A DNA stretch of 64,000 nucleotides from Patescibacteria group bacterium (GTDB lineage: Bacteria > Patescibacteriota > UBA1384 > UBA12157 > JAENIV01). The stretch lies in contig JBAYHL010000001.1 of the NCBI GenBank assembly GCA_041666185.1, positions 69,073-133,072 of the forward strand, written 5' to 3'. Below the pieces are notes generated by a model. The model did no database searches. It saw nothing but the letters and a program-made list of their open reading frames with translations, and was not told the DNA's origin. Position 1 is the first letter of the stretch. Every line of letters starts with the position of its first letter. The translations under genes were made by a program, and so were the position numbers. Positions 58,730 through 63,915 of the stretch are shown piece after piece.

Positions 58730-58806
58730 GGGCCCGTAGCGTAGCGGTTTAACGCGCCTCCCTGTCACGGAGGAGATCGCCGGTTCGAATCCGGTCGGGC
58801 CCGCCA
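58730..58806 (+). tRNA. tRNA-Asp (anticodon GTC), CCA encoded
   Basis: The acceptor is GGGCCCG/CGGGCCC, the anticodon loop CTGTCAC and the T-arm GCCGGTTCGAATCCGGT. Confidence 0.85.
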
Positions 58807-60399
58807 TTCCAAACGAAGAAGCCGTAAAGCTTCTTTTTTGGTATCATTTAAACCAGTTGTTACCCCTGCTAACACTGGTTCCAACCTTTTATATTTGGCT
58901 TCTACCGCTGGATAACGATTAATGATGGGAATCAGCCATTCATTAGGTTTAATATCCAATAATCCGTCTTTTAGCACAAAGTTCCAACCTAAAGCTGAGA
59001 AGATCTCTTTCTTTTGCTGAATATCCCCTATTTCAAAGGCTTTCAAGGCATATGTTACAAAATCAAAGAATCTCTCCCCTAACTCCATCCATTTCTCTGC
59101 TCTGTGGTCAGTATCCTTAAGTTCTTCCTGTAATTTAGCTTTTTTTGCTATCAATTCCTGTTTATTTTGAATATATTCGTCGTCATCTATTAATGATCGC
59201 AATTTCATTTTAAGTAGGTTATCGAGTTCAGTCTGAGTATTATTGATAGCTTTTTGTTGTGATTGATAGATCTTATTTCGATCACCAATTTCTTGATTGC
59301 TCCGACGATTCACAACCGATAGTGCCCAATCTCGAAAAACTGGCATTATTTTTATCCTACTAATCTCTCTTTCAATTTGTGTTTCGAGATTATCCTTGGT
59401 TATATACCCTTGCGAACACCATTTTTTCTTATGAGTGCAATGATAATAAGTAAAACTCTTCAATCGATTAGTACTTTTTATAAGTTTTGTTTTCATCTCG
59501 GCAGTGATTAGACAACCACACTCACCGCAACGGATCTGACCAGTAAAAGGAAAATAGTGCGTTTTGGGTCTTGGTTTGCCTTTTCTACCAAGTAATATTT
59601 GCACTTGATCAAATTCATCAAGAGTTACCATCGCTTCATGCTTCCCGGGATATTCTACCCCTTTATGTAAGATTACGCCTGAATAAAAGGGGTTGGTAAA
59701 CATTGCATAGATTGAACTCCGTGCCAAAGGACCACCGCCCCTTTTTCGCCTTTTTAAAGTAGTAAAACCCCACTGGTTGTTAGCTATATCAAGAATTATT
59801 GGTGGGGTGTAGTTGCCTGTCAGCATTAAATCCCACATTTTTCTAACTAAATCAAATCTTTTCGGATCTTTTATGATTGTATGTTCTGCAGTTTCAATAT
59901 TTACAAAATTTAAATAACCATTGGGTGCTTCTGAAGGCAACCAACCCATACTTAGCTTCTTCTCTAGTCCTCTTTTAACATCAGTTCCGAGTTTAGCTGA
60001 ATAATATTGGCCTTGCGAGAGTACCATTTGCAACATCAAAATACCAGACGCATCATTAATAAAACTATATGAACCGAATTTTAGATCTTTTATAACGCCA
60101 GTTCTTAAGGCATAAGTAATATTGGCAGCGTCTATCTCGTTTCTTGAAAGCCTATCGGGATGCCAAGAGATTATTCCATGAGCTTCGCCTTTTTCGATTC
60201 TTTCCATCATTTTTTGAAATAAAGGCCGATTATATGGCTTGAAAGCACTATGACTTTCTTCGAAATAGTCAACTATCGTCAACTCACCAAAGTATTCTTT
60301 GATTTTATCTTTTTGAGCGGGGATAGAAAGGGCTTGTCGCTCTTCACCTTCGCTGGATTTTCTCAAATAAGCAAAATATTTAATCTTTTCCATATTCAT
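58765..60399 (-). CDS. Large serine recombinase (resolvase catalytic domain, recombinase domain and zinc ribbon); 3' end overlaps the tRNA-Asp 3' half
   Basis: YLRKSSEGE...SIPAQ catalytic-Ser context and a CGECGC zinc ribbon. The last about 14 codons translate the tRNA complement. Confidence 0.8.
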   Translation of the reverse strand: MNMEKIKYFAYLRKSSEGEERQALSIPAQKDKIKEYFGELTIVDYFEESHSAFKPYNRPLFQKMMERIEKGEAHGIISWHPDRLSRNEIDAANITYALRTGVIKDLKFGSYSFINDASGILMLQMVLSQGQYYSAKLGTDVKRGLEKKLSMGWLPSEAPNGYLNFVNIETAEHTIIKDPKRFDLVRKMWDLMLTGNYTPPIILDIANNQWGFTTLKRRKRGGGPLARSSIYAMFTNPFYSGVILHKGVEYPGKHEAMVTLDEFDQVQILLGRKGKPRPKTHYFPFTGQIRCGECGCLITAEMKTKLIKSTNRLKSFTYYHCTHKKKWCSQGYITKDNLETQIEREISRIKIMPVFRDWALSVVNRRSNQEIGDRNKIYQSQQKAINNTQTELDNLLKMKLRSLIDDDEYIQNKQELIAKKAKLQEELKDTDHRAEKWMELGERFFDFVTYALKAFEIGDIQQKKEIFSALGWNFVLKDGLLDIKPNEWLIPIINRYPAVEAKYKRLEPVLAGVTTGLNDTKKEALRLLRLEWRARPDSNRRSPP

Positions 60400-61538: not shown

Positions 61539-61769
61539 CTATTTTTCGCTAAATATCCTATCTTTTAAGTCTTGAACTTTGTTAACATAGGATTTCACTT
61601 TTGTTATCGCTTGATTCTGCCAATAAGCGTTTGTGAGTTCGTTGAGATCCTTAGTTTCTTTAAAAACGAACCAAAATTTATGCCCATCGTTGTCCATTCG
61701 AATTAAGTTTTGGTTTTCGTTTAGAAGAAATGCACACAGGTAGAGATCCTTTAGTTTGATTTCGTTCAT
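61539..61769 (-). CDS. Hypothetical protein (76 aa)
   Basis: ORF only. Confidence 0.35.
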   Translation of the reverse strand: MNEIKLKDLYLCAFLLNENQNLIRMDNDGHKFWFVFKETKDLNELTNAYWQNQAITKVKSYVNKVQDLKDRIFSEK

Positions 61770-62178: not shown

Positions 62179-62874
62179 TTAAGGCATTTTTAGCATAAAC
62201 TCATAGCCTTTGCTCGAACGATCAAAATTAGACAACTCAATATAACCATCCCAATCTTTCGGGACTATTTTTTTCCAATTACCTTTAGTATCATCAATCC
62301 ATTTTACATAAACTGTTTTCTCGAACAACTTGAATATCATTTTCACAACATCCTCTCGTGTAAAACTCGCTTTGAGCCATTTACCTTCTCTAACACCCTC
62401 TCGTTTTAATAACGCGACGATAGCTCTCATAAAATGATAGCAATCTGTCCCTCTTGTATTGGATGGCGAGAAATTTATTGCCTTTGGATCACCACCTGGC
62501 ACTTTTAATTTAAATGTTAAATCATCAAACCAAAAATCTCTTTCATCTTCAGGATTACAATCTTTCCTTTTAGTAATTAATTTGTAATAGTTTTCAAAAG
62601 CCGATTCGTCAATTATCTCAACTGTAGCATTAGCAAAGTTGTTAGAATTAGGAAGTCTTTTTATAAAACCTTTTTCGCATAAATAGTTAATAATTTCCAG
62701 TGTGTCGCCTACTCCGCATATGTCATCTACGGAAAATGGTACAAATGATAAAGTTCGACTACCATCCAAAGTAATTTCACTTTTTATCTTTCGTATGATG
62801 TTAATTACTGCATTTGTTTTATATTCTCTGTTCGCCAAAAAAGGATCATCCATATCAATCTCCATCTCTGCCAA
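62179..62874 (-). CDS. Hypothetical protein (231 aa)
   Basis: ORF only. Confidence 0.4.
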   Translation of the reverse strand: MAEMEIDMDDPFLANREYKTNAVINIIRKIKSEITLDGSRTLSFVPFSVDDICGVGDTLEIINYLCEKGFIKRLPNSNNFANATVEIIDESAFENYYKLITKRKDCNPEDERDFWFDDLTFKLKVPGGDPKAINFSPSNTRGTDCYHFMRAIVALLKREGVREGKWLKASFTREDVVKMIFKLFEKTVYVKWIDDTKGNWKKIVPKDWDGYIELSNFDRSSKGYEFMLKMP

Positions 62875-62949
62875 TCATAACACGAAAAACTTGAAATTTT
62901 ACTCTGGGTGGCATAGAATTAAACTATAAATTAGAATTAGCACATTATT

Positions 62950-63095
62950 AAACCGCCTAAACCCGTAAGGGCATGGCAACCAAAAATCCTACAGTGATAT
63001 AAACGGTCTTTCGACCGCACTTATTCACTGTAGGTTCATACCCGAAAGGGTGTGGGACAGTTCCGAAAGGAATTGTCGTGGTTCGAAAGACCATT
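62950..63095 (+). ncRNA. Candidate structured cis-regulatory RNA (multiple GNRA-capped hairpins, alternative terminator/antiterminator pairing, U-tract)
   Basis: Hairpins: CCCGTAAGGG; the pair CCTACAGTGA...TCACTGTAGG enclosing GGTCTTTCGACC; ACCCGAAAGGGT; TTCCGAAAGGAA; TGGTTCGAAAGACCA followed by TTTTTG. The segment at 62996-63007 can alternatively pair with 63071-63083. Confidence 0.4.
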
Positions 63096-63113
63096 TTTGT
63101 ATTTAAAAAAAGG

Positions 63114-63248
63114 GAAATAATCATGAGTGAAAATAAAGATTCAAATAAAGTCTATGGTGATGATTCAAATTGGTGGTGCAGTTGTATCATAGGAGTTGTT
63201 GGAATAATTATAAGCCTATATATTTTGCGTTGGATAGTACATTTTTTA
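63114..63248 (+). CDS. 44-aa hydrophobic peptide (MSENKDSNKVYGDDSNWWCSCIIGVVGIIISLYILRWIVHFLIY), possible small membrane toxin/holin-like peptide
   Basis: RBS AAAGGGAAATAATC-ATG with a single TM helix. It lies immediately downstream of the structured RNA and terminator. Confidence 0.35.
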
Positions 63249-63267
63249 ATTTATTGAGAAGTGGATC

Positions 63268-63915
63268 ATGCTTAAAAAAATATCTATTTCCTTATTAACC
63301 ATCGTTATCTTATTAACAACTGGATTTTTTATTTATCGCCATTTTGATAATAAAAAGGTTGAGGGCATTCAAGATGCGAACTCAAAAATTATCGGAATCC
63401 CAATAGAATCAAAAAATAAACCCAGCCCTCTCAAGAGTTCGAGCCAAAGCCCTAATCAAAACAATTTAGTTTCTGAAAATAAAAATCAAAATAATACCTC
63501 AAATTCCACACCGTCCTCTACTGCATCAGAGACTAATGATTCTGACAATGATTTTACAGTTCCAAACTACCCAATACCGAGTTATAGCGATGACTATACA
63601 AATTCTTTAATTAATCGAGCCCAAGAAGAAGCTCAAAAATCACATGAGTCCCTACAAAAAGCCGAAGATTGCTTTGCTTTTCAAGCGCAAAAAGATGCCG
63701 AATTTCTTCCACTTAAGCAAGCCATTAGTGAACTTTGGAACCAATACTACAATGCAGACAAGATTGTTGCTGAAAGAACACGAGGCACGGATGTTAATGA
63801 GTCGCAAAGACTTCGATTAGTTGAAGCAGAAAAACAAAAAATAAAAGCCGACATAGATCAATTCCAAGCTGAATATAACAGACTATATTCAAATTACGGA
63901 GAATGCAATTATTAA
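63268..63915 (+). CDS. Secreted/anchored hypothetical protein with Asn/Ser-rich linker and coiled-coil C-terminus
   Basis: Signal anchor followed by low-complexity sequence. Confidence 0.45.
   Translation: MLKKISISLLTIVILLTTGFFIYRHFDNKKVEGIQDANSKIIGIPIESKNKPSPLKSSSQSPNQNNLVSENKNQNNTSNSTPSSTASETNDSDNDFTVPNYPIPSYSDDYTNSLINRAQEEAQKSHESLQKAEDCFAFQAQKDAEFLPLKQAISELWNQYYNADKIVAERTRGTDVNESQRLRLVEAEKQKIKADIDQFQAEYNRLYSNYGECNY

Follow-up and report, generated by a model that had tools for sequence, protein, structure and literature searches.

Which RNA occupies the gap in front of a short hydrophobic open reading frame (ORF) near the end of a sequenced stretch of a Patescibacteria group bacterium, and what could it do for the genes behind it? 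We addressed this question for 64,000 nucleotides (nt) of assembly GCA_041666185.1 (contig JBAYHL010000001.1, positions 69,073 to 133,072 of the forward strand), called the window throughout, in which an earlier note, made from the letters alone, had described a GNRA-rich structured RNA with mutually exclusive pairings upstream of a gene for a peptide of 44 amino acids (aa). The RNA, located at 62954-63077, is clearly a member of the known LOOT family, for which no function is recorded. Two things are new at the level of the family, namely a conserved 3' extension with a balanced alternative fold, both outside the Rfam model, and the position of LOOT as a leader before variable cargo genes, with a home in serine-recombinase elements on mostly Patescibacteria-named contigs. 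Judging from the sequences, we lean towards LOOT being a cis-acting two-state leader of the bistable attenuator type, which would gate these cargo genes.

Identity and architecture of the LOOT RNA

Across the whole window, the covariance models of Rfam gave a single match other than tRNAs, to RF03000 (LOOT RNA) at 62954-63077 on the plus strand, with 60.6 bits compared to a gathering score of 46.4. The match spans model positions 1-121 of 121, being complete at both ends, and has an E-value of 4e-10 if 4 kb are searched and of 6.4e-09 if the whole window is searched. The minimum free energy (MFE) of the LOOT region was -68.5 kcal/mol compared to -38.2 +/- 4.0 kcal/mol in 200 dinucleotide shuffles (z = -7.5), none of which reached the value of the native sequence. 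The RNA and its surroundings consist of the following parts:

62891..62919, plus strand: promoter-like site TTGAAA, 17-nt spacer, TAGAAT (consensus match only, 10/12)
62954..63077, plus strand: LOOT RNA core, helices P1 to P4 (RF03000, 60.6 bits; covariation over 83 sequences)
62955..62977, plus strand: P1 with GUAA-capped tip (CCC-GUAA-GGG) and internal loop CCUAAAC / GCAUGG (sequence and Rfam model)
62988..62997, plus strand: 5' strand of the P2 outer stem, CCTACAGTGA (CCUACAGUGA) (covariation)
62998..63024, plus strand: P2 apex, UAUAAAC GGUCUUUCGACC GCACUUAU, predicted to form its own hairpin (-7.2 kcal/mol) or a duplex of 20 base pairs (bp) with the 3' extension
63025..63034, plus strand: 3' strand of the P2 outer stem, TCACTGTAGG (UCACUGUAGG) (covariation)
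63037..63054, plus strand: P3 hairpin with GAAA tetraloop (compensatory changes at 8/8 pairs)
63055..63077, plus strand: P4 hairpin with GAAA tetraloop (Rfam model and covariation)
63078..63104, plus strand: 3' extension beyond the Rfam model, GUGGUUCGAAAGACC AUUUUUGUAUUU, with a weak local hairpin and a U-run, complementary to the P2 apex

The P2 outer stem has 10 pairs, of which 9 show compensatory changes in the family, and surrounds GGTCTTTCGACC with the small hairpin GGTC-TTTC-GACC. GNRA tetraloops are found on P1 (GUAA), P3 (GAAA) and P4 (GAAA). The 3' extension reads as a hairpin TGGTTCGAAAGACCA followed by TTTTTGTATTT, and the -10 element of the promoter-like site ends 34 nt 5' of LOOT. 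The architecture described by the earlier note was thereby borne out: at least five short hairpins, three of them with GAAA or GUAA loops, the 10-bp stem enclosing an inner hairpin (62988-62997/63025-63034) and the terminal hairpin plus U-tract (63078-63104) are all present. Two of the checks that it had proposed were in line with it as well, the Rfam models giving a full-length match above the gathering score and the comparison over 83 LOOT loci showing that the hairpins are conserved and covary. In the MFE fold, AUUAUU (62944-62949, just 5' of P1) pairs with AAUAAU (63115-63120, directly before the ATG of the 44-aa ORF); these six A-U pairs would bracket the entire RNA and take up the spacer from AAGG to ATG.

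The name LOOT presumably stands for 'lots of tetraloops', and we know of no host recorded for the family, which was reportedly first described by Weinberg et al. in 2017, in a supplement. LOOT is not discussed in the main text of PMC5737381, where 'Loot' occurs as an author name only. The Rfam 14 paper lists it as a 'metagenomic-based RNA' from Weinberg's ZWD alignments (PMC7779021), the Rfam entry RF03000 is labelled 'Gene; sRNA' (small RNA), and covariation in LOOT was noted in a structure-prediction paper. As far as we could find, no function past the label 'sRNA' has been proposed in the literature.

LOOT loci and family alignment

Two collections, one of viruses and one of species-representative genomes, were scanned with a pattern made from the P1 motif and the P3 loop, which fixes CCUAAACC, GGCAUGG and CGAAAG(G). 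The viral collection yielded seven LOOT loci (L002, the identical L004, L007, L013, L019, L045 and L030); five distinct ones pass the Rfam threshold (L002 (= L004), L007, L013, L019 and L045), and L030 was detected solely by a covariance model built in this analysis. From the genome collection, more than 120 pattern matches were obtained and 80 contigs were analysed, and a covariance model built from seven diverse members recovered a full-length LOOT in 76 of these 80 loci. The family alignment comprises 83 rows, corresponding to 83 LOOT loci. The published helices are paired in 93.9% of the cells of this alignment compared to 62.5% in shuffles, with 934 double-sided changes compared to 297, a number that was reached in 0 of 500 shuffles. 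The loop of P4 is a GNRA tetraloop in 76/83 loci and that of P3 is GAAA throughout the set, this motif being fixed by the search pattern.

Among the 80 genome contigs, 49 carry titles of Patescibacteria or the candidate phyla radiation (CPR), including Saccharibacteria, Paceibacteria, Microgenomates and many candidate phyla, 15 are unclassified 'bacterium' entries and 16 have other labels. The latter are named Gammaproteobacteria, Pseudomonadales, Planctomycetia, Cyanobacteria, methanogens and so on, and several stem from automated co-assembly bins (L050, L102, L104, L110, L111, L115, L119, L123, L062, L092, L094-L096, L106, L122, L124). It seems likely that these 16 are mislabelled or mis-binned contigs of Patescibacteria or phages. 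A different structured RNA was seen on three phage contigs (L001:11361-11494(+), L003:5695-5829(-) and L005:3350-3424(-)); it opens with a LOOT-like GCCUAAACC-GAAA-GGCAUGGC hairpin, has several GAAA loops, scores 23.2 bits compared to the LOOT gathering score of 46.4, and may represent a divergent LOOT-like family.

Pairing of the 3' extension with the P2 apex

In nearly all loci, a conserved stretch, typically of the form GCUGGCGGNGRGCUUUUUGUGU, follows directly 3' of the Rfam model, and a T-run lies within ~25 nt of the Rfam end in 79/83 loci. This extension of ~27 nt is complementary to the apex of P2 in 79/81 loci, forming a helix that the Rfam model does not contain. The pairing segments of the window are 62998-63017 and 63080-63103, with 20 bp at ~-25 kcal/mol (RNAduplex), and the pairing reaches the U-run, which pairs with the AUAUAAA (A-rich bulge) of P2. 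The sequences of apex and extension vary between loci and yet stay complementary, as in the pairs GGUCUUUCGA/UCGAAAGACC of the window, GGCCUCAUAAG/CUUGUGAGGCC of L045 and AAAAAGCUCCUAGUCAG/CUGGCUGGGAGCUUUUU of L019. L045 and L059, which are close relatives, differ by a U-to-A change in the apex that is mirrored by an A-to-U change in the extension.

The locus specificity of this pairing was assessed by a permutation test, in which the duplex of an extension with the apex of its own locus averaged -26.0 kcal/mol compared to -15.1 kcal/mol with the apices of other loci and -6.9 kcal/mol for an upstream control. The own apex was the best of 81 in 28 loci and among the top four in 56 loci. The duplex averages 17.9 bp (range 12-23 bp), has 18.7% G-U pairs and is stronger on the plus than on the minus strand in 77/79 loci; this strand asymmetry and the G-U pairs indicate that the pairing acts in RNA and does not reflect an inverted repeat in the DNA. 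Covariation was tested on a chimeric alignment of apex-plus-extension constructs, in which RNAalifold finds the helix. Its 16 pairs are 85.9% paired compared to 66.5% in shuffles and 41-58% in slid controls, and 234 double-sided changes were counted compared to 74 in shuffles, with 0 of 500 shuffles as high. The proposal of the earlier note that the inner P2 hairpin can pair alternatively with the terminal hairpin thus holds, with 20 bp in the window and with conservation and covariation in about 80 relatives. A stable hairpin within the extension alone is lacking in most loci (0 to ~-4 kcal/mol).

For the window, RNAfold also predicts that the U-run pairs with the A-run of J1/2 (CAAAAAU) in a closing helix. 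This candidate was rejected because it has no locus-specific support in the permutation test (own -6.7 compared to other -6.4 kcal/mol, median rank 38/77).

Two folds of similar predicted stability

At full length, the apex:extension duplex and the P2 outer stem are not nested, and the duplex consumes nearly all of the 19-29-nt 'loop' closed by the stem. As a straight 18-bp helix is too long for this loop, formation of the full duplex should preclude the P2 outer stem and vice versa; since covariation is strong for both of them, both must matter. For each locus, the stretch from P1 to the U-run was folded under a constraint, either to the published fold (state 1) or to the fold with the apex:extension duplex (state 2). 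The difference (state 2 minus state 1) had a median of +0.5 kcal/mol (mean +0.7 kcal/mol) over 79 loci, with the two folds lying within 5 kcal/mol of each other in 54/79 loci at totals of -47 to -85 kcal/mol; the values for the window were -65.4 and -63.2 kcal/mol. Such a computed balance across a diverse family is as would be expected of an evolved bistable RNA.

In state 2, a GC-rich helix is set directly 5' of UUUUUGU, with ~65 nt (P2 3' strand, P3 and P4) in its loop. Helix and U-run together are predicted to have the geometry of an intrinsic terminator, and the conserved stronger terminator-like helix would be this long-range duplex and not the local hairpin. Mutually exclusive structures of the kind found in attenuators, as claimed by the earlier note, are therefore supported, as the two pairings are not nested, covary and are energetically balanced; folding of both structures, which it had suggested as a check, gave near-equal predicted stabilities in the window as well as in the family.

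Position of LOOT before variable genes

A same-strand ORF (at least 30 codons, ATG start within 15-200 nt) follows LOOT in 78/83 loci, its start codon lying mostly 36-78 nt past the Rfam 3' end (+46 in the window), and the nearest downstream ORF is co-oriented with LOOT in 66/77 loci. The upstream neighbour is divergent in 51 loci versus 31. Promoter-like sites comparable to that of the window were found as consensus matches in 38/83 loci, with the end of the -10 element mostly 10-40 nt upstream of LOOT. In the closest relatives of the window, the nucleotide sequences stay similar across the promoter region and LOOT up to the ATG and no further, and the downstream proteins are unrelated; LOOT thus behaves as a portable leader before interchangeable cargo. 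Three metagenome contigs match the window at 62873-63290 with 100% identity, with L166 differing at a few positions further upstream.

The first ORFs after LOOT are unrelated across loci and encode many hydrophobic peptides of 44-100 aa, zinc-ribbon membrane proteins, a DNA methylase as well as NucS-like nucleases; Mrr-like nucleases occur among the downstream genes, too. A hydrophobic or transmembrane segment is present in the first 70 aa of 48/78 first ORFs, and the cargo may loosely be described as membrane or defence-type. As other LOOT loci precede unrelated genes, including methylases and nucleases, LOOT is not specific for toxins. In the window, the cargo starts with two ORFs:

63123..63257, plus strand: 44-aa ORF, MSENKDSNKVYGDDSNWWCSCIIGVVGIIISLYILRWIVHFLIY, with one predicted transmembrane segment, first cargo gene (start at +46 from the Rfam end)
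63268..63915, plus strand: 215-aa ORF with an N-terminal hydrophobic segment, second cargo gene (no family match)

The 44-aa ORF is a putative coding gene. Its ATG is preceded by an AAGG(G) motif, as are 20/37 long ORFs of the window by a comparable one, its C-terminal half is hydrophobic (Kyte-Doolittle 2.42 over 19 aa), and the annotation of one public contig (L168) includes it as a gene. Among 5.8 billion proteins, it matched only itself, and the four available copies (window and three contigs) are identical, so that no test of selection is possible. An identical 215-aa protein is encoded on the three metagenome contigs. The gene after it specifies a protein in which two stretches match FtsK-gamma, and further downstream lie genes for small proteins without assigned function as well as, on L166, an Mrr-type nuclease; no lysin-type Pfam domain was found in the downstream neighbours read on L166. 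Thus, the single-transmembrane ORF after a motif resembling a ribosome binding site, as seen by the earlier note, is present at 63123, where the start codons of the family fall, whereas its suggested identity as a type I toxin or holin is unsupported, given that the peptide has no homologue, no family match and no significant complementarity of LOOT at its start.

Additional signals are found 3' of LOOT in part of the family. An exact copy of the P2 5' strand (8-16 nt), for example AAACCUACGCAAAAAUAUG, lies mostly 0-7 nt before the downstream ATG in 21/83 loci and in 0 upstream controls. The loci concerned include L045, L059, L121, L079, L054, L087, L090, L104 and L007, with the copy ~40-55 nt past LOOT, and in 23/79 loci the duplex energy between the P2 3' strand and the start region was in the top four of the permutations. 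With such a copy at the start codon, the start site could be masked by the P2 3' strand once the opening of P2 has freed it. The segment after the U-run, moreover, is complementary to the extension in about two thirds of the loci ('P5-long'), with -12.2 kcal/mol within the own locus compared to -9.4 kcal/mol with other loci, and reaches -9 kcal/mol or lower in 54/78 loci. The arrangement is best explained by a functional unit longer than the Rfam model, comprising a promoter ~10-40 nt upstream, P1-P4 and the ~27-nt extension and reaching to the next start codon, and by LOOT heading the cargo operon that runs rightward in an integrative element or prophage with a serine recombinase.

Proposed mode of action and alternatives

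In the two-state leader that we favour, state 1 would correspond to the published LOOT fold with P2 intact and the apex sequestered, possibly braced by docking of a GAAA loop into the receptor-like CCUAAA/CAUGG loop of P1, and would let transcription and translation proceed into the cargo. In state 2, the P2 outer stem would be open and apex and extension would form the GC-rich helix of ~18-20 bp abutting the U-run, at which transcription would stop; where a copy of P2 exists at the start codon, in about one quarter of the relatives, initiation of translation might be blocked as well. Candidate triggers are a ligand, Mg2+, a protein of the element or the kinetics of folding alone. More tentatively, LOOT may represent a new class of RNA switches that respond to a signal, be it as orphan riboswitches or as factor-sensing leaders, on integrative elements and phages of Patescibacteria; this possible switch would have a tetraloop/receptor-braced ON state and a long-range terminator as OFF state, with the P2 copy at the start codon adding translational control in some lineages, and would be portable before interchangeable membrane or defence cargo.

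Compared to the published family, the LOOT RNAs described here have the same four helices, CCUAAAC/GCAUGG loop in P1, GAAA loop on P3 and GNRA loop on P4. Whereas the Rfam model has 121 positions, stops at P4 and is labelled as a metagenome sRNA, the conserved unit found here runs ~27 nt further, pairs with the P2 apex and lies upstream of co-oriented genes, on Patescibacteria-named contigs (49/80) and a few phage contigs. Attenuating riboswitches and leader attenuators resemble LOOT in having a structured 5' domain and then a segment that pairs back to give a GC-rich helix and U-run, in having exclusive folds of similar energy and in being followed by a co-oriented gene. In contrast to attenuating riboswitches, the genes downstream of LOOT share no pathway, LOOT has no known ligand or factor, its terminator-like helix is long-range, with ~65 nt in the loop, and the 5' strand of this helix is the apex of an internal helix instead of belonging to the closing helix of the domain. 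Phage operons, too, can begin with cis-acting leader RNAs, such as the put RNAs of HK022 and the pR'-tR' leader of lambda. As in these systems, LOOT is a structured RNA directly after a promoter in a divergent control region, before a terminator-like signal and an operon; similarity of sequence or structure is absent, so that the likeness would be one of position only. The P1 internal loop would, by its sequence, resemble the 11-nt GAAA tetraloop receptor (CCUAAG/UAUGG), from which the CCUAAA/CAUGG of LOOT differs only at the G-U position, on both sides. The LOOT RNA of the window carries two GAAA loops, although conservation of the motif cannot be judged from our set, as loop and receptor are both fixed by the search pattern. 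Catalogued variants of the 11-nt receptor differ at the G-U position and include AAA_CAU (bioRxiv 10.1101/2024.03.11.584472).

A number of observations weigh against the two-state leader. P2 is transcribed before the extension, so that state 1 should form first and a timely termination by state 2 is hard to explain. That P2 and the full duplex exclude each other sterically is argued from geometry and not from a computed 3D model, and a stop of transcription at the U-run, read-through, any trigger and the direction in which the cargo is regulated are inferred. The local hairpin of the window (63078-63094) has -4.3 kcal/mol and two G-C pairs by eye, and a consensus terminator scan made no call there. 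The window carries no P2 copy at its start codon, where a degenerate AGUGA..UAAA match is not significant and the duplex of the start region with the P2 3' strand has -11.1 kcal/mol (rank 16/78 in the permutation test), and a duplex test found no 'P5-long' partner of the extension in the window. The genes after LOOT have no common function that would point to a ligand. On the phage contig L002, LOOT is set apart from the next gene, which by our own reading may encode a portal-like protein, by a promoter-like site and a separate terminator of canonical appearance. Likewise, eight loci (L058, L073, L078, L081, L085, L089, L115 and L116) have TTGACA or TTGACT, a 17-18-nt spacer and TAACAT (TAATAT in one) ~25-56 nt past LOOT; the next gene in this subgroup encodes a signal-peptide or membrane protein, and the sites suggest that it could be transcribed separately. 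Finally, since the search pattern fixes motifs of P1 and P3, the sample is biased towards the part of the family that keeps them.

The signals after LOOT in L002 and in the subgroup of eight are also what would be expected if LOOT were a free-standing trans-acting sRNA with its own promoter and a 3' end made by the apex:extension helix and the U-run, the next gene being merely adjacent in compact genomes. The Rfam type 'Gene; sRNA', the promoter-like sites close upstream and the U-run in 79/83 loci fit this explanation, and the complementarity of the P2 3' strand to the adjacent start region (21-23 loci) could be an antisense contact that is made in trans. Against it speak the tight distance to the start codon and the same-strand ORF in 78/83 loci, as well as the conserved block that ends exactly at the ATG though the proteins differ; in addition, a dedicated sRNA terminator needs no balance with a second fold. 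We therefore consider a free-standing sRNA rather unlikely, if still a serious contender. That the complementarity of apex and extension reflects a static tertiary contact, such as a loop-loop kiss or a short pseudoknot without any switch, appears improbable. Contacts of this kind are common in structured RNAs, the central and best-covarying pairs involve the apical loop of P2, and the hairpin loops UUUC(G) and CGAAA of the window are complementary, but the complementarity extends over 12-23 bp and takes in the A-rich bulge as well as the two strands of the inner P2 hairpin, the extension lacks a stable hairpin of its own in most loci, and a straight 18-bp duplex should not fit into the 19-29-nt loop closed by P2.

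A pair akin to type I toxin-antitoxin systems, in which the 44-aa peptide is a membrane toxin (or holin) restrained by LOOT, is quite improbable in our view. The peptide is, as predicted, a small hydrophobic one of 44 aa with one transmembrane segment, at least 10 other loci precede unrelated hydrophobic ORFs of 47-84 aa, transmembrane segments are as frequent among the first ORFs (48/78) as stated above, and the P2 3' strand pairs with the start region in about one quarter of the loci. However, neither a homologue nor a match in the Pfam, PHROG and PADLOC scans was obtained for the 44-aa peptide (these scans also gave none for the 215-aa and 231-aa ORFs), the two ORFs after LOOT show no holin-family match or adjoining endolysin (PHROG, Pfam), the complementarity of LOOT to the start region of the 44-aa ORF is not significant, the promoter scan detected no antisense promoter-like site over this ORF, and many LOOT loci are followed by large enzymes instead. 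Lastly, the complementary segments could be read as an inverted repeat at the level of DNA, that is, a site for a recombinase or invertase, given the serine recombinase near 44/83 LOOT loci and the two inverted segments of ~20 bp at a distance of ~60-70 bp. This reading is scarcely credible, as the G-U pairs and the better pairing of the plus strand in 77/79 loci largely refute it, the attachment site of the element lies apparently at tRNA-Asp, 4 kb off, and the GNRA loops and the receptor-like motif are hallmarks of RNA.

With the two-state leader, LOOT is recast from an 'unknown sRNA' to a concrete attenuator or switch hypothesis. Gene regulation in uncultured Patescibacteria is almost uncharted, and LOOT gains a definite setting there; should the switch respond to a signal, mobile elements would carry a regulator for genes of membrane and defence type in these bacteria.

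The integrated element and its genes

Upstream of LOOT, the window contains a tRNA gene and a series of genes on the minus strand:

58730..58806, plus strand: tRNA-Asp gene, abutting/overlapping the 3' end of the recombinase ORF
58765..60399, minus strand: large serine recombinase (integrase) with Resolvase, Recombinase and Zn_ribbon_recom domains (phrog_95 integrase, 6.4e-63)
61539..61769, minus strand: DUF5659 protein (E = 1.4e-10)
62179..62874, minus strand: 231-aa ORF, divergent from LOOT and without assigned function (no Pfam, PHROG or PADLOC match)

The serine recombinase gene lies ~2.5 kb upstream of LOOT and abuts the tRNA-Asp gene, which agrees with the view of the earlier note that the RNA is inside an integrated element. 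The 3' end of the recombinase ORF overlaps the tRNA gene on the opposite strand by ~40 nt, with the final residues of the ORF encoded by the complement of the tRNA, which suggests an attachment site inside the tRNA gene. The element thus probably integrated at the tRNA-Asp gene, which would mark its left end; its right end falls past the end of the window. The small minus-strand genes that follow the recombinase include those of a Fis-type helix-turn-helix protein and the DUF5659 protein. The divergent gap then holds the promoter-like site and LOOT, and from there plus-strand genes run off the window.

A comparable setting was found in the family. A serine recombinase of the family found in the window is encoded near 44/83 LOOT loci, in 39 of these upstream on the opposite strand, and DUF5659 near 18/83 loci, in 17 of these likewise upstream on the opposite strand, the sequence available upstream of the LOOT loci having a median of only 4.4 kb. 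Large-terminase-like genes occur near 9/83 loci and ParB or methylase genes near 17/83. The best explanation for these neighbours is that the LOOT-bearing elements are a type of serine-recombinase integrative element or prophage that is common in genomes of Patescibacteria (CPR).

A link between LOOT and diversity-generating retroelements was considered and rejected, since it was seen at L002 and L007 alone and the other loci lacked it in the clustering. At these two loci, a reverse transcriptase with the GNLTSQ motif, typical of such retroelements, is encoded close to LOOT (L002:565-3519 and L007:5791-7071), joined at L002 by the gene of an Avd-like four-helix protein and by a target gene; a repeat at the C-terminus of the latter matches a template-like repeat close by, in the manner of a template repeat and variable repeat (TR/VR-like). 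In the right half of the window, ten tRNA genes are found between 35906 and 58806, in several small clusters, and the G+C content drops from ~40-44% in the first 10 kb of the window to ~33-37% thereafter.

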